Counted from the first letter of the whole stretch, positions 14,190 to 59,672 are shown. The stretch: 63,575 nucleotides of DNA, filler included, from Acidimicrobiia bacterium (GCA_029210695.1; 5 parts of 5 records of this genome joined end to end with filler, not necessarily neighbours in it); one strand, 5' to 3'. The notes: generated by a model from the sequence alone, not told the origin. A program made the numbers and translations.

Positions 14190-14270
14190 ATCTGGGAACA
14201 GATCCAGAATGCCGGATCGAGGGCGATGGTGAATGCTCGATATCGCTCTGGGCGGTGGGTGATCTGTGCG
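14190..14270 (-). repeat. Inverted 'head' copy of the module-delimiting repeat
   Basis: Matches 55865-55944 (22/26 and 33/37 identity in the two end blocks). Reverse complement CGCACAGATCAC...GCGATATCGAGCA...CCG^GCA matches the repeat family. Confidence 0.8.
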
Positions 14271-14367
14271 GTCTACGTCGCTCCTCCAAGTGGGGCAGTG
14301 CTGGCAAGTCGCCGGTTTCTTGGTGGCCCGGTTGCGAATCAGTGACGTGCGGCGTCTTTAGTGTGAG

Positions 14368-14883
14368 ATGGGTCGGACAGGTTTGCCATCAGCGGAGGTC
14401 ATGTCGTTGAGAGGTCTTGGCGAGGAGGAGACAGCGGTCGTCACGGAAGTGTATGAGCCGCTGCGCCGGTTTGCAGGTGTTGTCGGTCCGTTGGAGGTGG
14501 ATCCGGATGACCTTGTCCAGGAGGCCTTTCTGCGCGTGCTACGCCATGGCGCGCTGTCAGGTTTGGAGAACCCAGGTGCGTATTTGAGGCGGGTGGTGGT
14601 GAATCTGGCAGCGGATCATCGTCGCCGGTTAGGTCGCCGGCGACGAGCGTTGGCGAGGTTGGCAGCATCGTCTCCGTCTGGTGTTGACCCGGTATTCCCG
14701 TCGGATGTTGCTGATCTGCTGCACCTGGAGCCGAGGGCCAGGGCGGTGCTCTTCATGCATGACGTGGAGGGATATTCGTATCAGGAAATCGCAAACCTGT
14801 TGGGCCTGAGCGACAGCGCCGCCCGGATGGTGGCGTCGCGAGCCCGCCGACGGTTGAGGGCTGCGTTCGCCGAGGAGGTGTGA
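14368..14883 (+). CDS. ECF sigma-70 factor (module 1)
   Basis: Region 2 DDLVQEAFLRV...AYLRRVVVN; region 4 EGYSYQEIANLLG...SRARRRL. Confidence 0.92.
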   Translation: MGRTGLPSAEVMSLRGLGEEETAVVTEVYEPLRRFAGVVGPLEVDPDDLVQEAFLRVLRHGALSGLENPGAYLRRVVVNLAADHRRRLGRRRRALARLAASSPSGVDPVFPSDVADLLHLEPRARAVLFMHDVEGYSYQEIANLLGLSDSAARMVASRARRRLRAAFAEEV

Positions 14884-14884
14884 G

Positions 14885-15829
14885 ATGGAACAGGATCGTT
14901 CGGCATTCGAGTTCTTGGCAACACGCGGCACCCGCGTCGGACCTGACCTGATGGTCGAACGGCTGCAACTAGCGCTGGAGACCGAGCCCGACACCGAGCC
15001 GGGTCAGTTCCGCCGCCGGTCTTTCACGAGGAGCTGGTGGGTTCCCGTGGGAGCAGCGGCGGTGGCCGTGACGGTGGTGTTGGTTAGCTTGCTGATTCCT
15101 CCTGCTGCGCCATCAGCGGCGGCGGTGTTGGAGCAAGCGGAAGCCGCGGCTGTCCAATCGGCTACACCCGTTCCGGGGATGATGCTGCACCAGGTGGTTG
15201 ATTTCGAACGGAACCTGGAACCTACTTGTGAGGGAGGAACGGTGAGGATCGGTGGCGGTGAGGGTGGAGAGCCCCGCTACGGCACCGAGTCCTGGTTCGA
15301 CCCGGCGGGTAACCGGACCCGCGGCCATACCATCTACCCGGATGGGACATCCTCTGATTGGATCGACCTGGGCGGCGTCGAGATCTGGCAGCGAGGCGCC
15401 GAGTCGCCGTTCCGGTCAGTGGGGTGTTCAATGAGGGGGGGACCCACTGAACCACCCGACCCGGCCAATCTGGCACTGCTAGATGCCCTCAACGCTGTAT
15501 CTGATCCGGAAGCGGATCTGGTCGAGCGGGCAGCTGCTTTCGAGACGCTGCGGGGTTTCGAAGCGGTCGAGCTGCTTGCGGGCGAGCACGTAGATGCCAC
15601 CGGCCGTCGCGTGCTGGTACTGGAGGTGTCCCTAGAGGATGTGCTGGGCGAGCGCCAGGTAGCCGACCTCAAGTTCGACCCGGATACCTATCAACTCCTC
15701 GAAACAGCCAACTCCATCGATGGCCCGATGGTAAGGGGCACCGTGCGGATCACTGTTCTCGTCGAGGAATGGATCGAGGTGGATGATGAACTCTTCGATG
15801 TCACCGGATACACCAAGCAGACGGGATAG
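14885..15829 (+). CDS. Putative single-pass anti-sigma/sensor protein
   Basis: Directly after the sigma gene; short cytoplasmic N-terminus, one TM (WVPVGAAAVAVTVVLVSLLI), SAAAVLEQA then an acidic ectodomain. Confidence 0.7.
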   Translation: MEQDRSAFEFLATRGTRVGPDLMVERLQLALETEPDTEPGQFRRRSFTRSWWVPVGAAAVAVTVVLVSLLIPPAAPSAAAVLEQAEAAAVQSATPVPGMMLHQVVDFERNLEPTCEGGTVRIGGGEGGEPRYGTESWFDPAGNRTRGHTIYPDGTSSDWIDLGGVEIWQRGAESPFRSVGCSMRGGPTEPPDPANLALLDALNAVSDPEADLVERAAAFETLRGFEAVELLAGEHVDATGRRVLVLEVSLEDVLGERQVADLKFDPDTYQLLETANSIDGPMVRGTVRITVLVEEWIEVDDELFDVTGYTKQTG

Positions 15830-17099
15830 TCGCCGACCGGCCATAGTTGGCCGCGCCAGCTCGCCAGTGGTCGGACTCATCGCAGCGTCCGCATTGGTAC
15901 TTGCGGCCTGTGGCAACGGCGCCGAGACTGCGACCACTGCCCCGTACCAATCGTCAACTACACAATCGACCGCGGCAACTACATCATCGGTGGGGACTTC
16001 CTCCACAGCCACAATGATGCCCGAGACGCCGACCACAACAACGACTCGTGCTGAGGATCCGTGGCGACGGATCGCTTCTTCTCCACTCGAGGGCCGGTAT
16101 GCGCACGGATCAGCGTGGACCGGCGATCAGCTGGTGATCTGGGGTGGAATCTATCGGTCGGGTGACACTCTGGTCGATCTCACCGACGGAGCCGCCTACA
16201 ACCCGGCCAGCGACACGTGGCGGTCTCTGTCTCCGGCACCTTCGGATCTGGCGGGGCCAGCGGATGCGGTCTGGACCGGCCAAGAGATGATCGTACGGAC
16301 CGATCGTGTCCCCGACGGTCCAGCCGTAATGGCCGCCTATCAGCCAGCTGCGGACACCTGGCGGGTCATCGAAGGCGGGCCCGGCGCCGTACGGGAGGGC
16401 TATACGCTCCTCTGGACAGGAACCGACCTGATCATCTGGGGCGGCAACTCCGGCGACATGCTCGCCGGTCCCACCCTCGGCGCCGCCTACGACCCAACAA
16501 CCGACAGGTGGCGTGCAATTCGGGAATCGCCCATCGCCCCGCGAACCGGACACCAGACGGTCTGGACGGGGGAAGAGATGATCATCTGGGGAGGCCGGGG
16601 AAGCTGCGCCGGGAAAGACTCCACCTGTGTCGAGGACCTCACCGACGGTGCCGCCTACAACCCCGCCACCGACACCTGGCGGACTCTTCCGACGTCGGGC
16701 GACCTCCAAAGCTCAGCAGTGGCGGTATGGGATGGCGACCAGATCCTCTTCTGGAGTCAAGACGAGTGCACCCGGCGGTGCCTGGTCGGAGAGGCGTACG
16801 ATCCGCAGACAGACTTCTGGCTGCAGCTTCCCGACCCTCCAGCGCCAGCCACATCCGATCTGTACCGTGCGTTATGGATAGGTGACCGGGCACTCCTCTG
16901 GAATCAGGACGGCACCGCCCTCACCTACCAACCCAACACGGCAACCTGGCAAACCCTCCCACCGTACCCAAGTGCCGACCGCCGATTCTTCTTAACCCTC
17001 GGATGGACCGGGCAGGCCGTCATCGTATGGGGAGGATGGAACGGTCACGCCTTCACCCCGCCAAGCAACGACGGAGCCGCCCTAGACCCAACACCATGA
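15798..17099 (+). CDS. Kelch-like beta-propeller lipoprotein
   Basis: Lipobox VLAAC, Thr-rich linker, repeats WTGxxxIIWGG...GAAYNPxTDTWR. Start uncertain (15783 or 15798). Confidence 0.85.
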   Translation: MSPDTPSRRDSRRPAIVGRASSPVVGLIAASALVLAACGNGAETATTAPYQSSTTQSTAATTSSVGTSSTATMMPETPTTTTTRAEDPWRRIASSPLEGRYAHGSAWTGDQLVIWGGIYRSGDTLVDLTDGAAYNPASDTWRSLSPAPSDLAGPADAVWTGQEMIVRTDRVPDGPAVMAAYQPAADTWRVIEGGPGAVREGYTLLWTGTDLIIWGGNSGDMLAGPTLGAAYDPTTDRWRAIRESPIAPRTGHQTVWTGEEMIIWGGRGSCAGKDSTCVEDLTDGAAYNPATDTWRTLPTSGDLQSSAVAVWDGDQILFWSQDECTRRCLVGEAYDPQTDFWLQLPDPPAPATSDLYRALWIGDRALLWNQDGTALTYQPNTATWQTLPPYPSADRRFFLTLGWTGQAVIVWGGWNGHAFTPPSNDGAALDPTP

Positions 17100-17147
17100 C
17101 CGAACAGCAACGTCCAGGAAGCGTCGACGAGTCAGCAGATCCCCATG

Positions 17148-17268
17148 CGCTCCGATCACCCGCTATGCGCCATATCAAACACTTCGCGGACCGCACCCGG
17201 ACGGCACCACTGCGCTCGGGTATCTGAGTACCGTCCGACCACGGTGCGTGGAGTGTTGTCGGCGGTGG
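17148..17268 (+). repeat. Module-delimiting repeat, copy 1, with long imperfect hairpin
   Basis: CGCTCCGATCACC-CGCTATGCGCCATATC...GGACG^GCAC; stems 17178-17188/17247-17257 and 17198-17204/17231-17237. Confidence 0.75.
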
Positions 17269-17331
17269 GCCGCTCTTCGCATTGTTTGAGATTCTTGTAC
17301 ACCGTCATGCCGTGTGATGCGTGATAGTGGT

Positions 17332-17886
17332 GTGGAAACGGTACGAAGATCAGCAAGGGTGGTTGTGAGCGAAAACATCCCAGCGATGCCCCGGATCGAG
17401 GGGTTTGATGCTTTCTACGCCAGTGAGTACCCGCGGGCAGTGGCGGTGGCGCACGCTCTATTGGGCGGTGGCCTTGTCGCTGAGGACGTCGTACAGGAAA
17501 CGTTTTTGGCGACCTATCGACAGTGGGATCGGGTCTCGAGGTATGAGAACCCGCGCGCTTGGGTGCGGCGGGTGCTGGTGAACCGGGCGACGTCTTCGCT
17601 GCGGCGGCGGTCGGCCGAGTGGCGGGCCGTCATGCGTCTTTCTGGGCGGGTCGACCCGGGGTGGGTGAGCGCAATCGAGCCGGAGTCCAGTGAGGTGTGG
17701 AAGGCGGTGTCGCAGTTACCGAAGCGGCAGGCGCAGTCGGTTGCTCTCTATTACGTCGATCAGTTGAGCCTTGACGAGATCGGCGAGGTGCTGGGATGTA
17801 GCGCCGGGACGGTCAAGACCCACTTGAGCCGGGCCAGAACCAGGCTGGGTCGGAAGCTGAATGAGTTCAACGAGGTGACGGGATGA
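17332..17886 (+). CDS. ECF sigma-70 factor, SigE-like (module 2)
   Basis: AEDVVQETFLATYRQW, WVRRVLVN, LPKRQ, GTVKTHLSRAR. Start uncertain. Confidence 0.93.
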   Translation: METVRRSARVVVSENIPAMPRIEGFDAFYASEYPRAVAVAHALLGGGLVAEDVVQETFLATYRQWDRVSRYENPRAWVRRVLVNRATSSLRRRSAEWRAVMRLSGRVDPGWVSAIEPESSEVWKAVSQLPKRQAQSVALYYVDQLSLDEIGEVLGCSAGTVKTHLSRARTRLGRKLNEFNEVTG

Positions 17887-19346
17887 ATCGACTTGAGGAC
17901 CGGCTCCGACGTACGTCAAGGGAGCTACGTGAGGCGACAGCTCATCTCACCGCCCCCCCGCTAGAGGGTGCCCGAACCCGTGCGCGACGCCGGTTGGTGT
18001 TGGGGTTCGTTGGGGGGGCGGCGGTAGTTCTCTTTCTGATTGGCGGTGTTGCGCTGCTTCAACCCAACACCCCCGACCGGCCGATTGCCAACACCACGGT
18101 GGCACCCTCGACCACGGTGGCACCGTCGACCACGGTGGCGGAGGTGGACTGGACTGGGGGTTGGGTGGTGCTGTCGAGCGACCCCCGGGTGGTGCAAGCT
18201 CCCGACGACCCGGCACCTCTGTCGCCTCTCCCATCGGGCACCGAGATCCCCCTCCTGCCTATCACGTCTCTGAGGAGCCAGGACGTCGAAGCGATAGGCG
18301 TCTACGAGGGCGACCAACCGATCGTCGCGGTGGGTGTACTTGGTACCGGCGATCGGTTGTTCGTGGTCCCACCGGGGTGGACGGGGGCTCCCACCGATGT
18401 TGGCACCTGTTATCTGATCGTCGGCGACTCCGCCGCAGGCTCCGGTGTTCTCTGTGACGAGAACTGGGATGAGCCTTTGCTGGACCCAGATCCACCCGGG
18501 TCGCTCCGTTTCATCGGACCGGTACCGTCGGGGACGAGCACGTTTGAGGCCACCGATTGTCCCCTCACGACGAACTGTTCACATGAGATCGGCGAGTACT
18601 GGCAGCGCACCCGGGGCGGGTTCGTATTCATGGAAGCCCCGTTCAACTCCCCGGTCATCCAATGGACCGCACGAGCAGCCGACGGGACCGTCCTCCAACA
18701 AGCCGAGCGTGGCCCTTTCCAGTCGCTCGCCCAATCACCCAGCCAGACCGAAGCCGACGCCCAACGTGACGGGGTTGTCCCCGAGTTGGCCAACCTCGCT
18801 TTCACCCTCAGGGTCGACCCTTTGGTCGAATGGAACACCGAGGACGGTACATGGATGATCGCCCGACCGAGCGACGACCTCATCAACTCCACCATGGCTG
18901 ACGGATGCGGATTCGGTAACCTCGAGGGGACCTACCCGACCGAGGTGATCTGCACCTCCGAATACGGTGAGATCCTCCTCGTGGACGAAACTGGGAAGAT
19001 CGCCCGCGCGTATCCGATGCCGAGTGCAGTTCCAAGCTGGATCTATGTGACCTCGAGCACCGTGTATGCCGGACGGATCGGAGACGGGGGCCTACCCGAT
19101 TCGACCCTGATCCGTATCAGCCGCGACACACTGGAAGCCACCGTAGTCCTGATACCGGCGTACTTTGATGGCGGACAGGACTGGCCACCAGGCTGGCACA
19201 TCGCCACCCCAGAACAAAGCGCCGGATATGAAGGTCTGGTGGGGTTTGCCCCCGACATGACAGGCACCACGGTCACCTCCTGGAAAGGTGACGTTGTGGT
19301 CGACATCGAAGGCATCGACCAACTGATCACCCAACTCACCGAATAA
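17883..19346 (+). CDS. Putative single-pass anti-sigma/sensor protein
   Basis: ATGA overlap with the sigma stop; MNRLEDRLRRT start, one TM, (TTVAPS) linker, large ectodomain. Confidence 0.72.
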   Translation: MNRLEDRLRRTSRELREATAHLTAPPLEGARTRARRRLVLGFVGGAAVVLFLIGGVALLQPNTPDRPIANTTVAPSTTVAPSTTVAEVDWTGGWVVLSSDPRVVQAPDDPAPLSPLPSGTEIPLLPITSLRSQDVEAIGVYEGDQPIVAVGVLGTGDRLFVVPPGWTGAPTDVGTCYLIVGDSAAGSGVLCDENWDEPLLDPDPPGSLRFIGPVPSGTSTFEATDCPLTTNCSHEIGEYWQRTRGGFVFMEAPFNSPVIQWTARAADGTVLQQAERGPFQSLAQSPSQTEADAQRDGVVPELANLAFTLRVDPLVEWNTEDGTWMIARPSDDLINSTMADGCGFGNLEGTYPTEVICTSEYGEILLVDETGKIARAYPMPSAVPSWIYVTSSTVYAGRIGDGGLPDSTLIRISRDTLEATVVLIPAYFDGGQDWPPGWHIATPEQSAGYEGLVGFAPDMTGTTVTSWKGDVVVDIEGIDQLITQLTE

Positions 19347-19496
19347 GGACAGCCGCGACACCGGACGAGAACCCAAAGTCCGTCACCGGCAAACGACCAA
19401 GAGAACCCGAAAAAGGTGTCAAAGGAAACCACTCCCGACGCGTCTTACTAACAGTGGAAGCCACCGTCACCAGCGGGGAGCCGCGATGACACAGCT

Positions 19497-19606
19497 CGCA
19501 CCCGATCACCAAATATGCGCCATAACGCACCTCACAACCACCCGTCCCCGAACGGCACTTCGAGGAGCGCGCTCCGCTTGAACGGTCGCTACTCAGTGTG
19601 GTGGTC
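19497..19606 (+). repeat. Module-delimiting repeat, copy 2
   Basis: CGCACCCGATCACCAAATATGCGCCATAACG...CACCCGTCCCCGAACG^GCAC; GATCACCA (19504-11) can pair with TGGTGGTC (19599-606). Confidence 0.8.
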
Positions 19607-19660
19607 TGCTTTCGAGTCGGGTGTCATCTCCGAAGGTTCCGCGCTCGGGGGTTGCATGAC

Positions 19661-20710
19661 CTACGGACGGCGATTCAGGTGTCGGTCGCGGAGTTGCCTG
19701 CTGCCTTCCGCATAGGGTGTGATATCCGAAACTTGGGTGAGGGAGACGCGATCCGCTGGGATCCCATGAGACTGCAACCCGATAAGGGCGCTGTCCAAGT
19801 CGATTACCGCCACCCAATCGTCGCCCAAGGTGAAGGTTTCGGCCGGATGTGAAATGTCGTCGATGAAAAACCCTGAGCTGGCCCATTTAGGGACGGGTCG
19901 TCCGTCGATTTCGATGCGGCGCTTCATCGCCCATTGATGGAATTCCTCCGGTGCCAGATCCTCAGGCCGAGGAGCCTGGCGGTACCACAGCTCGCGGGTC
20001 AGCTCTCGGCGGATGTGATCAGGTTCACGGTCGGGTCGGTCGGGTCGTTTCCATATCGTGTTGACCCGCATTTGGGGTTCGTCGGGCGGATCCCCATACC
20101 TGAGTTCGAAGTGGGTCAACATCGACCCTGACTGCCCATGCCCTCCCAAAGACCGCTGACCGGCCCAGCCCGCCAGTCCATACACCGATCCCGGGGCCGT
20201 CTGCACCATCCGGATAAGTTGCTCGGTTTCGAGGCGCTCAGCTCGGGTCGGGCTGACCGTGCGGACAAGATCAATCCACAATCCGCGCCGGCCCAACCGA
20301 AGCAGCGCCGTAGCCAGGAAGAACAGCCACACCAACAGCACCCACACAACCGTCACCAGCAGCCACGACCAGTCGAGAGTCACCCGCAACACGACCCCCA
20401 ACATCACTCCCACGACGGTCGCACCCACCCAGAACACCGGCACCGGCTCCGCGGTCCGATGCTGTATCAGCACCCGAATCACCCGGGTCGGCCAGCTCCA
20501 CCACAACGGTCCACGATCGGCCCTGGCCCAGAGCGAGGCCGAGGATCCTGCGGGCCATTCATGCCCATTTGGGCAGCGCAGCGTCGATGACGGTGCCTGA
20601 CCATCGAAGAGCCAACCTCTCAGTCGCGCCCACCGGTTCGGCGTCGCGACGACCTGCCCCTCCAATCCACAGGCCCGACATGGGCCACCACCAACCGTTG
20701 TAAGCCACAT
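19661..20710 (-). CDS. Hypothetical membrane protein (module 3)
   Basis: Long ORF with CxxC and CPNGH pairs and two TM helices; fills the space between two repeats. Start uncertain. Confidence 0.6.
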   Translation of the reverse strand: MWLTTVGGGPCRACGLEGQVVATPNRWARLRGWLFDGQAPSSTLRCPNGHEWPAGSSASLWARADRGPLWWSWPTRVIRVLIQHRTAEPVPVFWVGATVVGVMLGVVLRVTLDWSWLLVTVVWVLLVWLFFLATALLRLGRRGLWIDLVRTVSPTRAERLETEQLIRMVQTAPGSVYGLAGWAGQRSLGGHGQSGSMLTHFELRYGDPPDEPQMRVNTIWKRPDRPDREPDHIRRELTRELWYRQAPRPEDLAPEEFHQWAMKRRIEIDGRPVPKWASSGFFIDDISHPAETFTLGDDWVAVIDLDSALIGLQSHGIPADRVSLTQVSDITPYAEGSRQLRDRHLNRRP

Positions 20711-20750
20711 GGCACGGCCGCTTGATCGCATCCAAGCAGTATGCCAGCCA

Positions 20751-20846
20751 CGCACAGATCACTCTGATATCGCGCCATAACGAGCACATCGCCCACCCGT
20801 CCTGGATCGGCACGTCGGCGGGCGGCGGCGGAACCACCCAGAGTGG
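20751..20846 (+). repeat. Module-delimiting repeat, copy 3
   Basis: CGCACAGATCACTCTGATATCGCGCCATAACGAGCAC...CACCCGTCCTGGATCG^GCAC; TCACTCTG (20759-66) pairs with CAGAGTGG (20839-46). Confidence 0.82.
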
Positions 20847-20936
20847 CGCAACACCGGATCACGGGGATGGAACCCGGACTGGTGCTGCGGGCATACCCGT
20901 GATGTGAGGTACGGTGCCCGTCTGTTGGGAGGTTCG

Positions 20937-21059
20937 GTGGTCGACGATGTGCGTGGTGATGCGCGGGATTGGCCGCTGGTCGTTGGCGGTGATCACGCGG
21001 CGTTCGAGCGCGTCTTCGACCGTCATGCCGATCTGATCTATCGGTTTGCGCGGCGCCGC
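20937..21059 (+). pseudogene. 5' fragment of a transposon-split ECF sigma factor (module 4)
   Basis: GGGAGG RBS, GTG 20937: MVDDVRGDARDWPLVVGGDHAAFERVFDRHADLIYRFARRR; joins in frame to 24938. Confidence 0.88.
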
Positions 21060-21112
21060 CTCCCGTGTGATTGAGTGGTGATTATGTCGCACCCCTCCGG
21101 TAGGCTGTGGGC

Positions 21113-22311
21113 GTGGCTAAGGGACGACCGATCGGAAGTGGTGCGAAGGATCTACCTTCATGCGTCCAACATCCAGGGAGCCGTGTGTAAAGAACGGCAC
21201 ATACGGAACAGGCAACGACAAGCGCCAGATGTTCCGTTGCATCCCCACAGATGGACCGGTCCACAAGTTCGCCGGAGTGATACCCCGGCTTGTGAATGAG
21301 AGCCATTCGTGCGACCACTGCGAGAACACAGTGGCAAGTCACGAAGGGCCCCGCGTTGCTCATCGCTACGAGTTTCCCGTGGCCCAAGCTGCTGCGGCGC
21401 TGGTCATGATCGGCCAGGGCGTTTCCTATACCGAGACTGCCGACCGGATGCGTGCTCGGAACTTCCGAGACAGGTTTGATGGCGGAGCGCAGCTGGTGTG
21501 CAACTGGGCTGAGATTCTGGGTCCAGTTGTTGTGAGTGAGTACACGGAGACTGAATGGCCTGAGACAGTCGTCTTGGACGCAACGTGGTTCATGGTGACC
21601 AACAAGCGCACCGGAGACACCACAAGGGCGTTCAGTGTTCTCGGCGCCCACGGGTACCCCGAGGGACACAAGCGGGGGCGGTGTTGGATGCTGCGCGCAA
21701 CGCCAACTCGAACGGCACGGGACTGGGAGAACGTGCTGCGGAGCTTGCCGGGTGAGCCCAAGATGGTCATCTGTGACGAAGACGCTGCCATCATCGCTGC
21801 AGTATCGAAAGTCTGGCCTGATGCGTTCATCAAACGGTGTGAACACCACCTGCGCGAGAGCGTCATCAAGAAAATGGCCCCCTATGGTCTCACCGCTTAC
21901 GGAAGCCCTGAGATGGAGCTGCTCAATGACGGCTTTCACAGCTCCAAGAGTTGGCGTGCATTCAAGAAGAAGGTGAGCGGCGCCGGCGTGGAGGACTGGA
22001 TCGTGCGACGCGAAGAGGTGATTGGGGAACAAGTGCGACTGCGCGGGCGTCTCCCCCAACACCACTCGACAGGAGCGCTCGATGAGGACTTGGCGAGGGT
22101 GCGAGAGTTCATGGAGCCTCGAGCGTTCTGCTATCGCAATGCCGAGAGGACGAACCGGCTGTTAGAGCTGGTGCGACTACGGCTCAGCCGATGTGACGAT
22201 CCGTTGATCTACGCCAGAGCCATTCGCAAGCACCTCGACTCCAACGGAGGCAAGCTCGGCAAGCAAGGAACCATCAGAGACAAAGCGGGCCATCCGAGTT
22301 TGCGGGCGTAG
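21113..22311 (+). pseudogene. Mutator-like DDE transposase, probably frameshifted near 21187 (main ORF 21160-22311)
   Basis: VVLDATW (D1), VICDEDAAIIAAVSKVWP...RCEHH (D2 + CxxH), STGALDE. The upstream frame GTG21113 MAKGRP...CVQHPGSRV* supplies the first half of a CH-CH zinc finger. Confidence 0.75.
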
Positions 22312-22346
22312 CGCCGTCAACCAGTCTCATCCCGCACTGGGTGTCT

Positions 22347-23510
22347 CTACCGGTTGCCCTTAGCCTGGTTGTGTGTCTTGCAGAGCATCTGACAGTTTGA
22401 GGCAACAGTGGGACCGTCCTTGCTCCACGCAGCCACATGATCTGCGTTCATGTCAGCGAAGGGCCAGATCTTGGCCTTGTTGGCATTCTGACCGATGGCA
22501 CAGAGTGGGCAGTTGGATTCTCCGCTCTTCTTCGCTTCGGTCGTCTGCTTCTCGTAGACCGAGCGACTTGTGGCTGTGTCGAATACGCGAACGTTGAGAA
22601 GTTTGGTGTCGGTTGAGCCACCGAGCAGGTACTCGTAGATGCCCCTGCGGTTCTGCACGTAAGGGTCGCCATAGAGCTTCTTCACTTCCGCATCGATTGC
22701 AGCCGGGTCGTAGGGTCTCTTGTGGTACTGCTCGTAGAGTCGCCCCCACTCCAAGCCGCACATCTCATTCTCAACTGACAAGAAGAGACCCGCCACCCAG
22801 TCGATCACGGTGTTGAAGTAGGTCTTCACTTCGCTGATGTTGTCGTTGTGGCGGTGCTTGCTCATGTAGTCATCCACGTCGCCCTTGCTCACCCACTCGA
22901 GCGCGCGCTCCCAGATGTCCTGACGATTCGCGCTGCCCGCCACGTAGGCGCCCCACTTCTGGATGTTGGCGTTCTGGCTGTTGGAAAACTCTGCTTTGCC
23001 GGCAGTCACGAACGGGCCTGAGTAGATGGCGTTGAGGAGCTCTTGGTTGTTGAGCGGAATCCCGGCAATGTTGATCGTCTTGAACCATTGCTTGATTTCG
23101 GTCTCCGTGCCGCTGCATTCGTAGACGAGGATCTCGGACTCGATGATCTTTGTCTGCTGATCCTCGGCCAGACCGCTGAAATACTGCTGCATACCGTTGG
23201 CATCGGTGATGGCAAACTTGTCGGTCACGAACCGGCCGAAGCTGGTGATCCTCTGCTGGCCATCGAGGACTTCCAGCCGGTCCTCGCCTGCACGGTTGAA
23301 GTAGATGAGCCCCAGCGGATAACCCTTCAAGAGCGAATCGACCACGGCAACATCACGCTTGCCATCGGCGTAGATGTAGTTGCGCTGATACTCCGGCTGG
23401 ATCGTCAACTTGCCCGCAAGACCAAACAGACCCCTGCCTTCCAACTCGTTGTAGACGAACCCCTCCGACACCTGCTCAACGGTGTAGCGTGTTAGTGTCG
23501 TTTCCATCAT
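22347..23510 (-). CDS. DUF262 (GmrS-like) + HNH endonuclease
   Basis: [27 protein letters not shown]-terminal CPLC...[11 protein letters not shown]...[13 protein letters not shown]. Confidence 0.9.
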
Positions 23511-23571
23511 GCGGCCTTTCGGTGGCGGATGAAGATTCGCTGGTAGGCCGACTGGATCACTCGCCCGTTCT

Positions 23572-24705
23572 TCATTGGGTTCTCCGTCGGATGAGAAGTC
23601 GTGCGTAGGTGGCTTTGAAGGTGCCATCCGGCATCTTGATCGCGGCACGCCTGTTCAGGTCTCCAGGCTTGGGAACATCGCCCTTTCGGTACTCCTTGGT
23701 TTTCAGGCCATATTCGTTGCCGCGGTCGGTGATGCCAAGAATCTCGAACTGCTCGGGGTTGTACTTGTCGAGGAAGCTGATCGGTACACCCATCGCACCT
23801 GGGTAGTCGCTCGGGATGGCGTCGGTGAACGGCACCTCGATCGCGTCATAGTTGTCGTACTTCTTGTAGCCGACCCCCCTGATCTCTTTGTGCTTGCTGA
23901 ATCTCTTGTTGTCAGCCTGGGTCATCAGGGCGAGGGGTTGGTGACGGCGGCCATGGTCAAGGTTCGTGAACCAACACGAGTTGCCGAGACGCGTGTAGTC
24001 GCCTTCATAGCCGAGACGAGCGGCTTTTTCCTTATCGGCGGCCTTGACCTCTGACCCGGGGGGTACACCGAACACCATGTCGCTTCCGTTGGCGGTAGCT
24101 CCAAGCCACAGTCGGTCAGTCTGGATCAGGGGAAAGACCTCCTTGTATGTGATGGCGTTCATGTTGCCCACGATGACAAGCTGCTTGCCTGCTTCCATGA
24201 TCCAGGCCAAGAACTCACGGAAGAGTGAGAACGGGGGGTTGGTGATGACCATATCGGCTTCATCTCGAAGACGACGGACCTCGTCACTGCGGAAGTCACC
24301 ATCGCCCACGAGGTATTGCCACTCCAAGTCGTTGACGTCGATCCTCTGGTCATTATTCACGTCACGGCTGAGGGTGAAGATCTTTCCGTCGGCCTTCGTC
24401 TTCGCCCGGTCGAACTGGGGGCTTTCAGCCTCAAAGAGTGTGGGTTGCATGGAATACGCGACTGCTGTCGGTGCATAGCTCGTGCTGATTAGCTTCTTCA
24501 GACCCAGCTTCTCAAAGTTCTGTGCGAAGTACTTGGTGAAGTTGCTCCACTCGGGGTCGTCACACGGCAGCAGCACCGTCTTGCCACGGAACACATCCGG
24601 GTCGTACTCGAGATAGGCGTTCATCTCCGTCTCGATGTCAGAGAACTGCGTGTAGAACTCATCGTTCTTCGCGTTCCTGGCGCTCGAAAGATTCACGTTA
24701 GCCAC
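23572..24705 (-). CDS. Adenine-specific DNA methyltransferase, EcoRI family
   Basis: [45 protein letters not shown]...[18 protein letters not shown]. Confidence 0.93.
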
Positions 24706-24937
24706 GAGCGGCTCTCCCCTGAGCTGTCAGTCGTAAGTGGCATTGCTTCGTCATTCTTAGATCTTCCCATATGGCGGTACGAGTGCGTGACTTTCTGCAG
24801 CAGTGTCGGCCCGTGCCTCACCTGGCGGCAGTCCCTTGGGGATGCCGAATGGAACTGCACCAACCCCCAACGGTACCCGAAGTAGGCCGTTCTGGGGCGG
24901 ACATAATCACCACTCAATCACACGGGGGGGGCGCCGC

Positions 24938-25450
24938 ACCGGAGATGCCGATCTCGCTGAGGAGGTTGTTTCGCAGGTGTTTCTGGAAGCCTGGCGGCAA
25001 CGCAAGCGGGTGCGACTTCTTGACGGTTCGCTGCGGTCGTGGCTGTTGGGGGTGGCCTCGAACCTGGTGAGACGTCACTGGCGGAGCCGAGATCGAGGGA
25101 GACGTGCCATCGGCCGCCTCCCTCATCCGACTCCGGTCCAGGATCACGCTGACGAGGTTGCTGATCGAACCGATGGCCAGCGACGACTGGAAGTCCTTAG
25201 AGCACAGCTCGAACGGATGCCCCGCAAGCAGGTCGAGGTGTTGCTGCTGTGGGCATGGGAGGAGCTGAGCTACAACGAGATTGCTCAGACTCTCGAGGTC
25301 CCGGTCGGCACGGTGCGGTCTCGACTCTCACGGGCACGGAAACATCTCAATGCCGGCGAGGGAACCGTCACCGAGGATCGGGCATTCCCTCATCGCAAGC
25401 CCGACGGTGACGACTCACCGGCCACGAATTCGGAAAGGAGCACAGGATGA
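24938..25450 (+). pseudogene. 3' fragment of the transposon-split ECF sigma factor
   Basis: TGDADLAEEVVSQVFLEAWR...WLLGVASN...LSYNEIAQTLEVPVGTVRSRLSRAR. Confidence 0.9.
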
Positions 25451-26199
25451 ACGACTCAGACCTTTGTCGTCTGATGCTTCCCGATGACGGACTACCGCCG
25501 GAACGTCACGACCTCATCAAGGAGCGTGTCATGACCGCGGTCAGAACCGAACAACCCTTCCCCGGCAGCCAGTCCACCTCGAGTTCCCGGGTTCGTGTGC
25601 GACTGGTCCCAACCCTGGCGTCGGTGATCGCTGTCCTGCTGGTGGCGGGCACCGCTGGGGCGATGGGGCTGTTTCCTTGGCAGGCGAAGGAAACCCTCGA
25701 CTACATGGATTGCCGCACCAGCGGCAGCGTCGAGACACTTGTCGCCACCGCCGATGCAAGCGACGGGAACACCACCCAACTCTGGACCACCAGTCCAGGT
25801 CCAGACGCTGCGCCGAGCGGATTCGCCATGGTCGAGATCGATTCGCAAGGTGAATACGTCGGGGGTGTGAACGCGTGCAACACCGCCACGTGGGAGTTCG
25901 CCCCCATGGGCGAGATCTGGGTCGGAGCCCCAGCAGAAGCCTCCGCACAAGAAACGGTCCTCACCGTGCTGGGCCACGTCCCCACCGCGGCTGCCACCGT
26001 CGAGGTGACCTTCGACGACGGAAGCGTCGTGCAGACCAACGTGCAGACCGACGGCTACTTCCTCGAGCTCGTCCACGGTCCCGGCGTTGACGTCTCTCCC
26101 GGCAATCCCGAGCCGCACTTCCCGGAAGCCATCATCGTCACAGCCCTGGACACAGACGGGAACGTCATCGCCCGCCAAGACCTCCGGGATCTCGGATAG
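25447..26199 (+). CDS. Putative single-pass anti-sigma/sensor protein
   Basis: ATGA overlap, GAAAGGAG RBS, one TM (LASVIAVLLVAGTAGAMG), ectodomain. Confidence 0.72.
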   Translation: MNDSDLCRLMLPDDGLPPERHDLIKERVMTAVRTEQPFPGSQSTSSSRVRVRLVPTLASVIAVLLVAGTAGAMGLFPWQAKETLDYMDCRTSGSVETLVATADASDGNTTQLWTTSPGPDAAPSGFAMVEIDSQGEYVGGVNACNTATWEFAPMGEIWVGAPAEASAQETVLTVLGHVPTAAATVEVTFDDGSVVQTNVQTDGYFLELVHGPGVDVSPGNPEPHFPEAIIVTALDTDGNVIARQDLRDLG

Positions 26200-26282
26200 C
26201 CGAACCAGCGGACCGGCAAGCGCTCTGAGTCCCCCGCGTACCCGGGGGGCTCGGCGCATGGTCACCGCGAGACGCCCCGGGT

Positions 26283-26359
26283 CGACCGAGATCACCAAAT
26301 ACGTTGCACGAACGAGCACTCCGCCGAGAGCGCTGGATCGGCGTTTCTTGCCCGGCGGA
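26283..26359 (+). repeat. Module-delimiting repeat, copy 4 (diverged)
   Basis: GAGATCACCAAATAC...AACGAGCAC...TGGATCG^GC at the conserved 51-nt spacing; stem TCCGCCG/CGGCGGA. Confidence 0.65.
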
Positions 26360-26491
26360 TCGAACACTCACAGTTGTTCTCTCCATGATGCCGGACTGGG
26401 CCGCAACTGGCGGATGTCTATCGATAGTTGCACGCCGAAGAGGCCGCGATGAGACAATGGTGATGGTCGCGGCCTCGAATAGAAACTTGAG

Positions 26492-27352
26492 ATGGCTGAA
26501 CAAGAGCATCGTCAATCCGGGAGCGCGTCAGTCGATCATGTCGAGCGTGCTGATCCTGACGGCTCGATTCGCTCATCGATCGAGATTGCATCTGTGCTGA
26601 AGGATCCGCTGGCGAGGTCGCTTCTCGCCGCTCTTGGTGCTCCGGCCGATTCGTTGGATCGCATGCTCGCTGCCTCCGATGAACTCAGGTCGTTGGTAAC
26701 GGGATATCAGCGGTGGGCGCCGCTGTCACAGATTGGGTGGGCCATTACTGATCTCGCGACCCCGCAGGTCTATGACCAGGCGGCCGAGCTGCTCGACGCT
26801 GGGAAGCAGAGGACGGCCGAGGAGGTCCTGGAGGACTACTGGAACGAACCCGGCAGGTTGGAATCAGCTGCACTGCGGGTTCTGCGTGTCGCGATCTACT
26901 CCGAAACACGAATTCAGGTTGGTCAACGTCGGCACGAGCTCGTGGAGTTGGCGGTTGCCGATCATCGCGCAGAGAGGTATCACGCGTCGGTACCGGTTGC
27001 ACTTGCGCAGGCAGAAGGAATGGTGCGGGACGTGATCGATTCCTCCCCGTTTCTGAACCCCAACCGTCTCTCCGATGATGTATCCAGTTCGGGTCATCCC
27101 GACATTCTGCAGCCGATATTCGAATCGAGCAGGGCCACAATGAAACGCACGGTCCTCGATGTATCTGGTGTGTTCCCGCCTCGTCACGGTGTTCTTCACG
27201 GGCGTGATCTCGGATACGACAACCGGCGCAACTCCACGAAGGCGCTCATCGCCCTGACCGAGTTGGCAACCTTCTGCCAAGCCCAACTGGTCCGGGCGGA
27301 AAAGGACGGAACACTCGAGGATCTCGACCGGCAGGCGTTCGGAAGTGCATAG
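26492..27352 (+). CDS. Hypothetical helical protein with a HEPN-like RxxxxH motif (module 5)
   Basis: C-terminal PRHGVLHGRDLGY...NSTK and an upstream conserved-looking QAEG helix. Confidence 0.6.
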   Translation: MAEQEHRQSGSASVDHVERADPDGSIRSSIEIASVLKDPLARSLLAALGAPADSLDRMLAASDELRSLVTGYQRWAPLSQIGWAITDLATPQVYDQAAELLDAGKQRTAEEVLEDYWNEPGRLESAALRVLRVAIYSETRIQVGQRRHELVELAVADHRAERYHASVPVALAQAEGMVRDVIDSSPFLNPNRLSDDVSSSGHPDILQPIFESSRATMKRTVLDVSGVFPPRHGVLHGRDLGYDNRRNSTKALIALTELATFCQAQLVRAEKDGTLEDLDRQAFGSA

Positions 27353-27430
27353 GTGCCATAGGACGCACTGCGGTAGATCTCGATCAGGGTCGTCGCTCCG
27401 ATGTTTGCTGCTGGATACCCCCATGCAGTC

Positions 27431-27482
27431 CAGATCGCCAGATATGCGCCATAAAGAACGGGCCCCTGATCCGAGCCGAACG
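27431..27482 (+). repeat. Module-delimiting repeat, copy 5, cut by an IS110 insertion
   Basis: CAGATCGCCAGATATGCGCCATAAAG...GAACG followed by the IS110 end in place of GCAC. Confidence 0.78.
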
Positions 27483-27573
27483 AGGCCTGTTTGGTTGTCA
27501 AGGGGTGTTTTGGGCGCGGTGGAGTGCCTTGCCGGATCGGCAAGCTCGGTGGTGTGGGCGTAGGCTGGGGGTT

Positions 27574-27664
27574 GGCCCGGGGTGGCTTTGTGGAAGAGCC
27601 GGCGCTTCAGGATGCAACGCCGGACACGCACGCGACAGAGACGTTCCTGGGTGCCCCCCGGGCC
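27574..27664 (-). ncRNA. Predicted IS110 bridge/seek RNA
   Basis: 91 nt starting right after the transposase stop, closed by GGCCCGGGG/CCCCGGGCC, with internal stem CCGGCGTT/AGCGCCGG. Confidence 0.6.
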
Positions 27665-28076
27665 CTAACGCTTTTGGTCGGCGACGAGGTGGCGGTAGAC
27701 GACGTCAGAGAGGCGCCGTTTCAGTGACCGGATGGCTTCCTTCTTCGTTTTGCCTTCAGCGAGTTTACGTTCGTAGAAGATGCGTCCCTCAGTTCCCGGG
27801 TAGCGGAGTTGGGTGATCGCGATCAGATGCAGCGCATGGTTCAACATGCGGTTGCCTCGCGGGTTGAGCCGATGCCGCTTCTTCGACCCGGAGGAGGCGT
27901 CGATGGGGGCGGTGCCGTTGTAGGTGGCATAGTGGTGCCGGGTGGGGAACCTGGTGATGTCGCCGCTGTAGCCGATCACCAGGCCGGCTACGACCGGGCC
28001 CACGCCGTAGATGTCGGTAAGGGTGGTGCCCGACGCTGCCACTGCGGTGGCCAGGTTTGCCTTTGACGCTTTGAGT
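27665..28076 (-). CDS. IS110 transposase, C-terminal part (cut by contig end)
   Basis: IYGVGPVVAG...RFPT...GTAPIDASSG...RLNPRGNRMLNHALH...AIRSLKRRL. Confidence 0.92.
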
Positions 28077-55412: not shown

Positions 55413-55489
55413 ACAGAGTGACCAAAACCCGGCCCGGGGGGTCAATTTTCAACCGGTGCCAGGGGGTCAATTTTCAGGCGGTGTTGACA
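55413..55489 (+). mobile_element. IS21-family terminus
   Basis: GGGGGTCAATTTTCA twice (55437, 55462) and terminal GTTGACA. Confidence 0.8.
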
Positions 55490-55836
55490 CCACCGACCGG
55501 GAATGGGCCTACGTGGCGATGAGCCGCGGACGGCAAACCAACACCCTCTACCTCACCAACGTCGGACCGGCTGATGAACAGTGCGCCCACCTCACCCACC
55601 AAGGTCGCTCCGATGCCCTCGATCGCCTCACCGCTTCGCTCAACCGCGCCTCGGCCCAGATCGCCGCCATCGACCATGCCGGACCGGCACCCACCGATGA
55701 CATTGACCCGTTGGGTCCGCCCCCACCCAGCACAGATGTCGCTGCTCGGGTCGCCTGGCAGATCGCCAAACGCCGGATCCAAACGGACGAAACCGAACGG
55801 CAGGCACCCGGCTTCGACCTTGCTGTTGGCCGCTGA
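55490..55836 (+). pseudogene. C-terminal fragment of a MobF/TrwC-like relaxase-helicase, interrupted by IS21
   Basis: Helicase motif VI REWAYVAMSRGRQTNTLY and a tail ending ...GFDLAVGR*, typical of relaxase C-termini. Confidence 0.72.
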
Positions 55837-55864
55837 TCGCAACCACGGAACGTGACAACTCAGT

Positions 55865-55944
55865 ATCTGGGATCAGATCGATATTGCCGGCTATGAGCGA
55901 AAGGGAGTGCTCGCTATCGCTCGGGGCGGCGCGTGATCTGTGCG
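55865..55944 (-). repeat. Inverted 'head' copy of the module-delimiting repeat, 28 nt after the relaxase stop
   Basis: Homologous to 14190-14270; ends GTGATCTGTGCG. Confidence 0.8.
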
Positions 55945-56059
55945 CCGGTGCCAATCGTGGACCGATGGCAGCGGGTCGGAGGATGGATTCCAGGATCCTC
56001 GCAGCGGGGTGCGGTACTCGACACCAGTGCGGCCTCGGCCCGTTCAAGAGGAAGGAGAG

Positions 56060-56701
56060 CTAGCTAGGTGGCTCTCCGTTTCCCGGCCTCTCCGTACTCA
56101 CGCCGCGTGCACGGCTATCGGGCGATCTATGGGTGGACGTTTTCCGACGGTCTCGGTTACCGCGACCGACAGCATTTGTGGTGGGGCGGGTGACCCAAGC
56201 GGCGACAGCGGCGGTACTGAGGAGGATACCGATGGTGATGGCGAACCAATCGGGTCCCTCATTGAGGCTGCGCCCTTTTTCGAGGACGGTCAGAGATTCG
56301 ACTTCGAGATAGGACTCGCCCTGTCTCTCCGGGTCGTGGTATCTCCAGATGCCCGCGACTCGTACGATCGGTCCTCGGGAGTGATAGCCGCCAGGATCAT
56401 CGAGAGAGTCGGTCAGGGCAGTGGGCATCCGTATCCCGATGCCCTGGTTGGCTCCGACCGGAGGGCCACCCTCGACTATCGGCTCGTAGACGTATACATC
56501 GCCATTCAGTTGTGTCCATGTCCAGCCGTCGTCGCGATGGCCGTAATCGCCTATCAGCTCACCTGACACCGCCACTTCCTGGCCGGCCAGGTCGGCGCCC
56601 ATCTCGATCAGATCGGAAACAGTGACTTCACTGGCGGCCAATGCGGCATGAGGAACGAGAATGAGAGCTGTAGCCATGACCGCGACTCGTAGGCGTCGCA
56701 T
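56060..56701 (-). CDS. Exported protein with OB-fold-like domain and C-terminal TM anchor, last gene of the trk operon
   Basis: ATG overlaps the trkH TAA; signal peptide ...AALA, GQEVAVSGELIGD, VRVAGIW. Confidence 0.75.
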   Translation of the reverse strand: MRRLRVAVMATALILVPHAALAASEVTVSDLIEMGADLAGQEVAVSGELIGDYGHRDDGWTWTQLNGDVYVYEPIVEGGPPVGANQGIGIRMPTALTDSLDDPGGYHSRGPIVRVAGIWRYHDPERQGESYLEVESLTVLEKGRSLNEGPDWFAITIGILLSTAAVAAWVTRPTTNAVGRGNRDRRKTSTHRSPDSRARGVSTERPGNGEPPS

Positions 56702-58197
56702 TACTTCCCCCTTGCCCACGAGTAGAGGAACCCGAGTAGAGAGAACATGGCGACGAACTCCAGGCGACCAGCCCACATTTGCGTCATGTACACCAGTTCC
56801 AGAAGCACCGGCATCGATGGGTTGGTGACACCTACCGACAAGCCTACGTTGGCGGAAGCGCTGACAGACTCGAAAAGAGCAGCCTGTAGCGGGATTCCAT
56901 AGGCGAGACCAATCCCGGCTCCCAGCAGGTAGAGCGCCACATATAGGAGCGACACGATCATGACGGATTGGGCGAGGCTTGGGGTCAGATGCTTCCGCCC
57001 GGCTTGGCTGTAGGCGCTGCTGACCACGGCATGCTCTGGGAGCAGGACCTGTTTGATCTGGGTGAAGACCGTCTTGATGGTCAGTCCGATCCTGAGGGAC
57101 TTGACGCCGCCCGCGGTCGACGACCCCATGCCACCCAAAGCCATCGCGATGGCCATGCCCCCGAAGGCGAGGCCGCCCCATTGTGAGAGTTCGGTGGTCG
57201 AGATAGTGGAAAAACCGGTTCCGGTATGGGCGGAGAGGATCTGAAAAAGGCCCTGTCGGGTCAGGCCAGCCACCGCGGTGAAGGCCCCGGTGACCGCCAG
57301 ACCGATCATTGTGAGCAACAGTGTGAACCCGAACGTGGAGAGGATGGTGCGGGTTTCGAGGTTGGCGAAGACAGCTCGGCGCGGGCCGCGCCACAGCGAA
57401 TAGTGAACTCCGAACGACATTGCCCCAGCGACCATCAGGACGGAGGCCAATCCCTCGAAGATTGCAGAGTGGTAATAGCCAATGCTGGTCGATTGCGGTG
57501 AGAAACCTCCTGTGTCGAAGCCGGCGAAGAACGTCATCAACCCGTGGAAGACGGCGCGGTCCGGATCGAACCCGAGCACCAGCCATCCGACAAGGCCGAG
57601 CGCGGCAACACCGAAGACCAGGTGCACGACGGATACGGCCCAGATGAATCTCGCCGTAGAGGTGACCGAGGGGAGGACGCGCTCGTCTCTTCCCTCACCG
57701 AAATAGAGGGGGATCCCTCCGGTTCCGGCGAAGACCGATAGTGCTGCCACGATGATGCCCTGCCCACCCAGGAATTGGAGAAGGTGTCGCCAGAAGTTGA
57801 GCGAAGGCGCAAGGTGGTCCACATCACTGAGCAGTGACAAGCCGGTTGTGGTTAGTCCGGAGACTGCGTCGAAGAGAGCGTCGAGGGGCCTGCCGAAGTG
57901 GCCGGACAGCAGCAGCGGAACGGAACCGATGACAGGTACGATCAACCAGGTGAGGGCTACGACCACCATGCCTTGGCTCCAGTCGAGCTTCCGCACCTCC
58001 GGGGCGTTCCTGATCCCGATGACGCCGAAAAGGGCGAACAGTCCGACCGTTACGAGAAACGAGCCAAACGGATTCCACTCTCGTCCTAGAGCCGCCCACG
58101 TGAGTGGTAACAGGCCGACGGCGGCGACGATGAGAAAGATCCGGCCCATGTAGAAGGCGATGGTTCGAAAGTCTTCTGCGACGGGTCGGATCAGCAT
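56701..58197 (-). CDS. trkH: TrkH potassium uptake permease
   Basis: Four pore loops SGLTTTG, FDTGG, AHTGTG, ASANVG; GGMGSSTAGGVK; GRLEF. Confidence 0.94.
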   Translation of the reverse strand: MLIRPVAEDFRTIAFYMGRIFLIVAAVGLLPLTWAALGREWNPFGSFLVTVGLFALFGVIGIRNAPEVRKLDWSQGMVVVALTWLIVPVIGSVPLLLSGHFGRPLDALFDAVSGLTTTGLSLLSDVDHLAPSLNFWRHLLQFLGGQGIIVAALSVFAGTGGIPLYFGEGRDERVLPSVTSTARFIWAVSVVHLVFGVAALGLVGWLVLGFDPDRAVFHGLMTFFAGFDTGGFSPQSTSIGYYHSAIFEGLASVLMVAGAMSFGVHYSLWRGPRRAVFANLETRTILSTFGFTLLLTMIGLAVTGAFTAVAGLTRQGLFQILSAHTGTGFSTISTTELSQWGGLAFGGMAIAMALGGMGSSTAGGVKSLRIGLTIKTVFTQIKQVLLPEHAVVSSAYSQAGRKHLTPSLAQSVMIVSLLYVALYLLGAGIGLAYGIPLQAALFESVSASANVGLSVGVTNPSMPVLLELVYMTQMWAGRLEFVAMFSLLGFLYSWARGK

Positions 58198-58198
58198 G

Positions 58199-58345
58199 TC
58201 ACAAGAAGGCCAGAACTATGACCGCGACGATCCATGCTGCCGCGGCGACCACTGCTACGATCAAGGTCTCGATGGCGAACATCGCGAGGCCCCCGGCCAA
58301 ACCGGTGATGCTCATCCATTTTCGGTTCCTCGACGAATCCGTCAC
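58199..58345 (-). CDS. 48-aa hydrophobic protein (not in the ORF track)
   Basis: GTG overlaps the trkA TGA and the stop is 1 nt before the trkH ATG; MTDSSRNRKWMSITGLAGGLAMFAIETLIVAVVAAAAWIVAVIVLAFL. Confidence 0.7.
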   Translation of the reverse strand: MTDSSRNRKWMSITGLAGGLAMFAIETLIVAVVAAAAWIVAVIVLAFL

Positions 58346-59004
58346 AGCTGGCCCTCTTTCGGATGGCCTAATACGGATCGCACCTCGTCCTCGAGTTCCA
58401 TGCTGCTCACCGCGGTCACCCGATCACCCGGCTTGAGGTGTGTGGAGGCGATCGGGATCGCCACCTCGTCGCCGCTGCCCACGGTGATGAGGAGAGATCC
58501 CTTGGGCAATCGGATCTCGGCTAGGGGCCGCTCCGTGAAATCCGAGGGAAGGTCGATCTCGTACACCGAGAACCTCCCCCTCCCGAGCACCGCGATGCGG
58601 TTTAGAGCAGATACTTCCACCTCACGTGAGATCAATCCCGCCATCATGTCGGTCACGGCCACCACCGGGACATCGAGCGCTTCGAACGTTGGGCGATTCA
58701 ACGGAGCGTTGAGCCTCGCCAGAACATGCTGAGCGCCAAGGGTGAGGGCGAGCTGGCATGCCATCAGGTTGACCTCGTCGCGCCCTGTGACTGCAAGCAC
58801 CCAATCGGCTCGGTGGACGTCAGCAGCCTTGAGTAGGTATGCGTCGCTACCATCGCCCTCCAGGACCAGTGCTTTGGAGTCGTCGGTGAGGGCTTCGGCG
58901 CGCCCGCGACGCTCCTCGATCACTGTGACGATGTGACCCGCCTCGTGGAGTTCGCGAGCAAGGAACGATCCCACCTTGCCACCCCCTATGACGATGATCC
59001 TCAC
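58342..59004 (-). CDS. trkA: TrkA-family RCK protein
   Basis: IGGGKVG, GDGSD, VTGRDEVN, TrkA_C domain. Confidence 0.93.
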   Translation of the reverse strand: MRIIVIGGGKVGSFLARELHEAGHIVTVIEERRGRAEALTDDSKALVLEGDGSDAYLLKAADVHRADWVLAVTGRDEVNLMACQLALTLGAQHVLARLNAPLNRPTFEALDVPVVAVTDMMAGLISREVEVSALNRIAVLGRGRFSVYEIDLPSDFTERPLAEIRLPKGSLLITVGSGDEVAIPIASTHLKPGDRVTAVSSMELEDEVRSVLGHPKEGQL

Positions 59005-59663: not shown

Positions 59664-59672
59664 TTGTTCCCC

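Follow-up and report, generated by a model that had tools for sequence, protein, structure and literature searches.

Candidate non-integron cassette arrays with double-stranded recombination sites and a linked Xer-like recombinase in Acidimicrobiia

Integrons are thought to be rare in Actinobacteria. Here, we analysed a 63,575-nucleotide stretch of DNA (the window) from the Acidimicrobiia bacterium genome GCA_029210695.1, in which an initial annotation, made from the sequence alone, had pointed to an integron-like cassette array delimited by a repeat of about 60 bp. The window consists of five joined contigs of one assembly; the cassette array is contig C158 (window 14190–28076), while the repeat copy at 63441 lies on another contig, C175. 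Throughout, G000 is the source genome (3.9 Mb), C denotes contigs, L retrieved loci and X1 to X4 public sequencing runs. The repeats are recombination-type sites of two classes, A and B, described below, and they delimit the following features.

14199–14273, minus strand: class B site, inverted; its spacer (14210–14215) reads TGCCGG on the plus strand, its accessory boxes point into module 1, and it opens the array.
14216–17207, plus strand: module 1 (B-to-A), with genes for an extracytoplasmic function (ECF) sigma factor (14368–14883), a putative anti-sigma factor (14885–15829, no Pfam match) and a Kelch-repeat protein (15783–17099).
17146–17219, plus strand: class A site 1, spacer CGGCAC at 17202–17207.
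17208–19558, plus strand: cassette 2, with an ECF sigma gene (17314–17886) and a putative membrane anti-sigma gene (17883–19346).
19496–19570, plus strand: class A site 2, spacer at 19553–19558.
19559–20813, minus strand: cassette 3, a single inverted hypothetical gene (open reading frame (ORF) 19661–20755).
20749–20825, plus strand: class A site 3, spacer at 20808–20813.
20814–26344, plus strand: cassette 4, with an ECF sigma gene split into parts at about 20902–21059 and about 24930–25450, and a putative anti-sigma gene (25447–26199).
21060–24929, unstranded: IS256/MULE-like transposon inside the sigma gene of cassette 4, with terminal inverted repeats and an 8-bp flanking direct repeat; it carries genes for a transposase (21160–22311, plus), a GmrSD-HNH nuclease (22347–23648, minus) and an EcoRI-type methyltransferase (23572–24705, minus).
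26282–26356, plus strand: class A site 4, spacer (26339–26344) degenerate, CGGCGT.
26345–27482, plus strand: cassette 5, with a hypothetical gene (26492–27352) encoding an RxxxxH string.
27425–27482, plus strand: class A site 5, severed after the CG of its spacer by IS110.
27483–28076, minus strand: 3' end and transposase C-terminus of an IS110-family element that targets class A sites.
55874–55944, minus strand: class B site on C175, spacer at 55885–55890, behind a relaxase-like C-terminal ORF (55456–55836).
63440–63500, plus strand: class A site at the end of a 7.6-kb B-to-A module of C175, interrupted at CG by IS110 (63501–63575).

All six copies of the repeat that the initial annotation had listed (five in the array and the one at 63441) lie where it placed them, and the GATC-to-CG spans of 50, 51, 53, 51, 50 and 53 nt were identical on recount. 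The written consensus was too specific, as GCGCCATAACG is exact in only two of the six copies, and the site runs about 12 bp beyond the CG^GC of that consensus. While the A copies were right, the second, inverted class at 14199–14273 and 55874–55944 had been overlooked. Similarly, the fourth sigma and anti-sigma module is present but actually spans 5.5 kb, its sigma gene being split by the IS256/MULE-like element. The RxxxxH string of the supposed HEPN-motif gene in cassette 5 is there, but HEPN itself is unconfirmed (no Pfam match better than E = 0.013); this gene has no PADLOC match, and its Atlas neighbours are unnamed and without a Pfam family.

In the whole source genome, an iterated nucleotide profile detected 38 copies of the repeat at E < 0.2, and none at E < 1 in the reversed-genome decoy. 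A longer model placed 28 of 37 copies on contigs shorter than 15 kb, which hold 11.6% of the genome bases. Within one contig, the copies are co-oriented and lie between modules of one or two genes. No copy is present on the housekeeping contigs C157, C160 and C161, in agreement with the initial annotation, and isolated copies beside housekeeping genes also occur. A scatter through core intergenic regions would have spoken for a different kind of repeat; we found the motif between genes, clustered in islands, with only 17 of 445 sites falling within called genes although the coding fraction is 0.75. A coding origin of the repeat, prompted by covariation between positions i and i+3, was rejected, as no conserved frame could be seen by eye and the sites are intergenic.

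The site is about 72 bp long and is built of two degenerate inverted arms around a 6-bp spacer, with two direct arm repeats upstream. The A core consists of an 11-bp arm ending K-A-W, the spacer CGGCAC (present in 297 of 352 A sites) and an inverted 12-bp arm, and the direct arm copies stand 26 and 46 bp upstream of this core. When a matrix of the B inner arm was applied to A sites, the top scores fell at offsets 0, −26 and −46, and in reverse at +6 and −40. Class B shares these boxes, but its spacer is CCGGCA, and it stands inverted at array starts; across 148 loci, 303 of the 306 pairs of adjacent sites follow the order of an inverted B and then co-oriented A sites, a count that includes overlapping loci. 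The two spacers share five bases offset by one, in both recombinase clades described below. This is the anatomy of a site of the tyrosine-recombinase type. With its CGGCGT spacer, class A site 4 is probably a poor substrate.

We assessed whether these sites could act as single-stranded hairpins, in the manner of attC. Folding z-scores ranged from −1.5 to +1.2 over 10 strands, RNAalifold placed 0 pairs in a consensus structure, no antidiagonal covariation indicative of long-range pairing was seen across 104 sites, and no cassette-level complementarity was found in 44 pairs. An attC-type hairpin is thus ruled out. The absence of the RYYYAAC and GTTRRRY boxes, already remarked in the initial annotation, holds for all six window sites (0/6), and both boxes occur in 1 of 292 sites. 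An Rfam scan of 14190–28076 gave no match at E ≤ 1. Integron-style B-by-A insertion was rejected as well, since inner/inner hybrid sites are not in excess (2% versus 1.2% for random). In three short linkers inspected by eye, the outer arms of A and B on either side showed no pairing. Two unpublished genomes, G010 and G021, give 2 rows of the 104-site alignment, 2 rows of the dif set used below and a place in the tallies of 41 relatives and 151 genomes; no conclusion rests on them.

The points at which related sequences part were compared among 335 A sites and 57 B sites. In nine A pairs, the sequences are alike over at least 90% of 120 bp upstream and divergent downstream, and identity stops at the last spacer base in eight of them. 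Another ten A pairs are alike downstream only; seven of these mismatch at the base preceding the spacer, and six are identical over the 16 nt that come next. Six B pairs break at the spacer or within 3 nt. In the source genome, the cassette C69 is found behind two different sites, with identity beginning at the spacer. Window cassettes 2 and 3 recur in contigs of four public runs, with ends at 17202, 19558 and 20813; being 85–99% alike, these contigs come from relatives and not from this strain. Those of X1 and X4 start matching at 17202 behind a different site, X1 has a joint at 19558, loose ends lie behind 20813 in X1, X3 and X4, and a 3144-nt contig of X2 holds window 19502–20773 at its positions 745–2019. 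Support is weak for a joint bypassing the IS256-like element (a single contig of depth 2.3).

Over larger distances, one module is 98.5% identical between two families, and the complete genome G030 carries a 100%-identical 1770-bp B-to-A module at two places. DDE transposon ends (TG...CA) were considered for this duplicate and rejected, as there is no target duplication and the outer arms are conserved. In relatives, modules begin and end at the site. The crossover, judged from where the shared cassettes of other genomes break, is the 6-bp spacer and not CG^GC, the point proposed at first, where CG^ marks the insertion point of IS110.

Every right end of one IS110 group in the source genome (8/8) lies behind the CG of an A spacer, and GGCAC follows each of the 11 distinct left ends listed. 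We regard the element as a parasite of A sites, with CG^GC as its insertion point; the assembly is fragmented because IS110 copies have inserted in the sites. A parallel is the IS1111-attC group of the same family (works cited in PMC11187229), which likewise enters a cassette recombination site at a single point and in a single orientation, the difference being that the IS110 described here targets the A site and not attC. The non-coding left end of this IS110 (C140 17450–17685, L026 and homologues) contains an internal copy of the GGCAC-plus-arm motif of its target, which may be the guide segment of a bridge/seek RNA. Another insert type, with a related end, starts after CGGCA of the A spacer (L181:2033, L217:10528, L242:4277) and is possibly another site-targeting IS group.

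The initial annotation had proposed a recombinase that is not in the window. Clustering of the 1354 genes around sites ranked tyrosine recombinases first (23 loci). This cluster contains a 307-aa Xer-like subfamily, 84–99% identical. In seven distinct places, its gene begins 114–148 bp past an A site; 54–59 bp beyond the stop there is a B site, detected by profile in three places and by eye in another three. The protein is composed of core-binding and catalytic domains with the R-K-H-R-H-Y set, and R158, K184, H248, R251, H274 and Y283 occur without exception in the 20 aligned sequences. Its scores are below the cut-offs for XerC (133 versus 335) and XerD (136 versus 330) and, at 73.6 bits on TIGR02249, far below the IntI cut-off of 265. 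The spacing from the first catalytic Arg to His is 90, versus 87 in host XerC. The enzyme aligns to XerD without a large insertion and lacks the IntI insertion, which the accessible part of PMC8138268 describes as essential for integron function. That same part of the source names no tyrosine-recombinase subgroup fitting the linked enzyme; its subgroup hidden Markov models were not compared.

The linkage was also seen when loci were chosen by other means. Among metagenome loci picked by the protein alone (at least 79% identity), A lies upstream in five of six evaluable cases and the B core downstream in six of seven (five by pattern, one by eye; two loci share flanks). In GTDB loci, the A core is upstream in 6/8 evaluable cases, and the B core is downstream in 7/8 at 75% identity or more and in 0/4 at 72% or less. 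A divergent clade of 72 loci (66–76% identity) has the same layout with other spacers, TCGGCG upstream and CGGCGG inverted downstream: 18 loci have both and 24 have one, and 17 have CGGCAC cores or are too short. The family is a large one, comprising at least 6842 clusters (E ≤ 1e-60); plasmids gave one 48% homologue.

Other candidates were examined and set aside. The source genome has 24 tyrosine-recombinase matches and no IntI among them (best TIGR02249 score 68.6). The C121 integrase beside a half-site clusters with ordinary element integrases and is also present in the site-free genomes G007 and G018. The 205-aa recombinase of C119 clusters with one protein only among 10 other genomes examined; a catalytic-domain-only tyrosine recombinase of about 205 aa is common to C119:28442–29059 of the source genome and C5:21691–22194 of G029. 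The C116 recombinase shares 32% identity with the linked enzyme and lies on a contig free of A sites; C116 itself, 33.9 kb with overlapping ends (circular), encodes two tyrosine recombinases. A MobF relaxase was considered in the role of recombinase, as B follows a relaxase in four places, and rejected, as most arrays have none.

We also surveyed what the arrays carry and where they occur. The median length of the 196 A-to-A cassettes is 829 bp; of the 188 shorter than 3 kb, 155 contain one or two genes. Integron cassettes are promoterless; here, in contrast, cassette genes are of mixed orientation, 117 lying with the sites and 170 against. The cargo includes MazF/PIN toxin-antitoxin pairs, ECF sigma pairs and GNAT, serpin, Imm33 and AadA-like genes, among the last an AadA-like nucleotidyltransferase gene within an array cassette at L018:189–995. 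Large modules, as on C175, would seem from the sequence to move too; the 7.6-kb B-to-A module there (window 55413–63575) holds K+-transport-like and KdpD/KdpE-like genes, judged from translations only. With a sequence-only model, sites were found in 31 of 41 relatives and in 76 of 151 genomes of the order, about half, and G030 holds six separate small arrays. In GTDB contigs, the exact pattern has no fewer than 126 occurrences; among the 80 listed, most bear the label Acidimicrobiia, Actinomycetota or unnamed bacterium. Five of these 80 had no profile match, including those labelled Rhodobacter, Caulobacter, Fluviicola and Acidobacteriota, and the host of the site system is therefore most likely Acidimicrobiia. 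In viral contigs, there were two pattern matches, neither confirmed by the profile.

Taken together, these results support the proposal of a distinct site-specific cassette system, with a co-occurring non-IntI tyrosine recombinase in relatives. We estimate at about 75% the probability that the locus is a non-integron cassette array in which a dedicated Xer-like tyrosine recombinase exchanges double-stranded sites through homologous spacers. Catalysis would be by the linked enzyme, presumably by way of circular intermediates and with a role for the accessory repeats. A-by-A exchange (CGGCAC) would excise, insert and reorder cassettes, while B-by-B exchange (CCGGCA) would swap the DNA in front of the array. 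Crossover at both classes could move a whole B-to-A module or an A-to-B segment between molecules, the latter being either the recombinase gene itself or a linker of 65–117 bp. Linkers of this size are near-identical in different loci (L204, L208, L217, L219, L240, L242, L173, L238) and may be miniature mobile segments.

B sites also follow genes of integrative mobilisable elements, which would carry arrays between cells. The C158 end with its B site overlaps C124 by 77 nt, and there the B site follows the stop of a MobF relaxase belonging to an integrative element beside secG, with a tyrosine integrase and a small excisionase-like ORF. The recombinase would ride as a cassette and act in trans on orphan arrays. 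As it is usually lost or broken, and was not found in the source genome, most arrays, the one in the window included, are orphans. These would be reshuffled only upon arrival of the enzyme in trans, and IS110 copies colonise them.

Several observations weigh against this interpretation. The A site does not adjoin the recombinase gene in L207, L190, L396 and L408, nor does the B site in L300 and L406, and 13 of the 72 divergent-clade loci have neither core. With this query, the enzyme was not found in G000 (best match 32%), nor in the complete G030 despite its duplicated module, and it is present in only 14 of 151 genomes, in many as fragments. Sites occur in 12 of 14 recombinase-positive and 64 of 137 recombinase-negative genomes, which speaks for the linkage, but the Fisher p = 0.009 overstates this association because related genomes are not independent. 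Some loci recur across data sets, and L402 repeats the flank of L214. The outer arm itself differs in four of the ten A pairs alike downstream only, which leaves the crossover point unfixed there, and the invariance of the B spacer is circular, since CCGGCA was required for calling B sites. No circle junctions were seen in the assembled contigs, which were the only material; the sequencing runs contain at most 0.11 of the words, and thus no reads of this strain.

Recombination of the sites by host XerC, alone or with XerD, in the style of pdif modules, would make the linked recombinase merely a frequent cargo or helper. The site core does have dif geometry (11-6-11/12), and the site arms score −9 to −13 on a XerC-arm matrix, above random DNA (−21.6) and also above random DNA with the same two inner bases (−16.9); one arm is even a perfect match to the XerC arm of the order's dif, a further point against a dedicated enzyme. 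However, true dif XerC arms score far higher (17.5), and no XerD-type arm is present, the site means being −18 to −22 versus 21.4 for dif. The chromosomal dif site lies at about 10409–10436 of C44 (L145) in the source genome; in 34 of 41 genomes from the order, it is matched exactly once. XerC and XerD were present in 11 of 11 genomes examined, more widely than the linked enzyme, but genomes with both and without sites exist, the spacers change along with the recombinase clade, and the sites bracket the recombinase gene. Acinetobacter pdif/dif modules share with our arrays a double-stranded core of the 11-6-11 type (PMC12907356, in the portion accessible), modules bounded by sites, XerC-like arms and, in the B-to-A modules, inverted sites; they differ in having a XerD arm, whereas here the sites are mostly co-oriented, with two fixed spacers, extra direct repeats and a linked dedicated recombinase. 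Because the arms are weakly XerC-like and the G030 module was duplicated without the enzyme, host XerC stays a rival, if an unlikely one. In L305:470–4100, three A/B pairs 50 bp apart, alternating in a pdif-like way, stand upstream of a 69%-identical recombinase.

Alternatively, the sites could be resolution sites of mobile elements, similar to cer or to the internal recombination site (IRS) of TnpI, and the arrays relics of co-integrate resolution rather than a capture platform. A core with two directly repeated accessory motifs, a 6-bp stagger and a simple tyrosine recombinase are also the layout of TnpI/IRS of Tn4430, where, according to the part of PMC2847244 available, the accessory repeats impose deletion selectivity and so favour deletion over capture, which speaks against our interpretation. 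The arrays also sit in islands with integrases and relaxases, and the mixed orientation of cassette genes would suit this explanation. On the other hand, IRS resolves transposon co-integrates, whereas here dozens of degenerate sites of two classes bound small, mostly one- or two-gene cassettes. These recur beside different neighbours across families, at up to 98.5% identity, so that precise insertion is needed in addition to deletion. Among the array proteins annotated with Pfam, no Tn3-type transposase came to light, although no search aimed at Tn3 was made. We consider such an origin quite improbable.

A repeat of the repetitive extragenic palindromic (REP) or MITE (miniature transposable element with inverted repeats) kind, or a regulator-binding repeat, merely targeted by IS110 or other elements while modules accumulate passively, would agree with the IS110 ends at the sites and with the isolated copies beside housekeeping genes; it is very improbable, given that most copies have no IS, that they concentrate on contigs under 15 kb, that site orientation is strict and that the breakpoints fall at the spacer end and not at the IS110 point. 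A divergent integron attC array, that is, a cluster of attC sites lacking integrases (CALIN) served by an IntI elsewhere, would explain co-oriented sites between small modules with toxin-antitoxin, GNAT and AadA-like cargo and a targeting IS110-family element like IS1111-attC of integrons (works cited in PMC11187229), but is largely refuted, and hardly credible any more, by the missing hairpin, pairing and boxes and by the low TIGR02249 scores.

The likeness to integrons is nevertheless considerable: small accessory cassettes that each end in a co-oriented degenerate site, orphan arrays, a distinct array-start site by the recombinase, toxin-antitoxin cargo and IS110-family parasites. It ends at the hairpin and the attC boxes, in place of which there is a conserved 6-bp spacer, at the enzyme without the IntI insertion (PMC8138268, same part), at the cassette genes that are not co-oriented, at a recombinase gene itself bounded by sites and at several small arrays per genome. 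The array thus works like an integron without having IntI or attC, and it lacks the XerD arm of pdif modules. It appears to be an undescribed gene-capture system, integron-like in its working, with another enzyme and other sites; our literature search, with most subscription journals outside it, turned up no description of arrays like these from Acidimicrobiia or any other Actinobacteria. We would give even chances to a wider proposal, that this is a convergent actinobacterial form of gene capture in which two mutually exclusive spacers allow both shuffling and a natural recombinase-mediated cassette exchange, the enzyme travels as a cassette of the system, so that it can spread through a population, reshuffle orphans and be lost, and clades have evolved different spacer pairs.

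If active, the system would be a second, independent route of cassette capture, overlooked by attC-based detection. It would offer a direct and testable way to learn how these uncultured bacteria exchange ECF sigma modules, toxin-antitoxin pairs and enzymes, the AadA-like gene among them, and the arrays are a reservoir of unexplored accessory genes that can be defined by sequence. Being a single protein with two orthogonal spacers found in nature, the recombinase could also serve as a cassette-exchange tool in high-GC hosts. In cassette 4, finally, the methyltransferase and the GmrSD-HNH nuclease are passengers of the IS256/MULE-like element.

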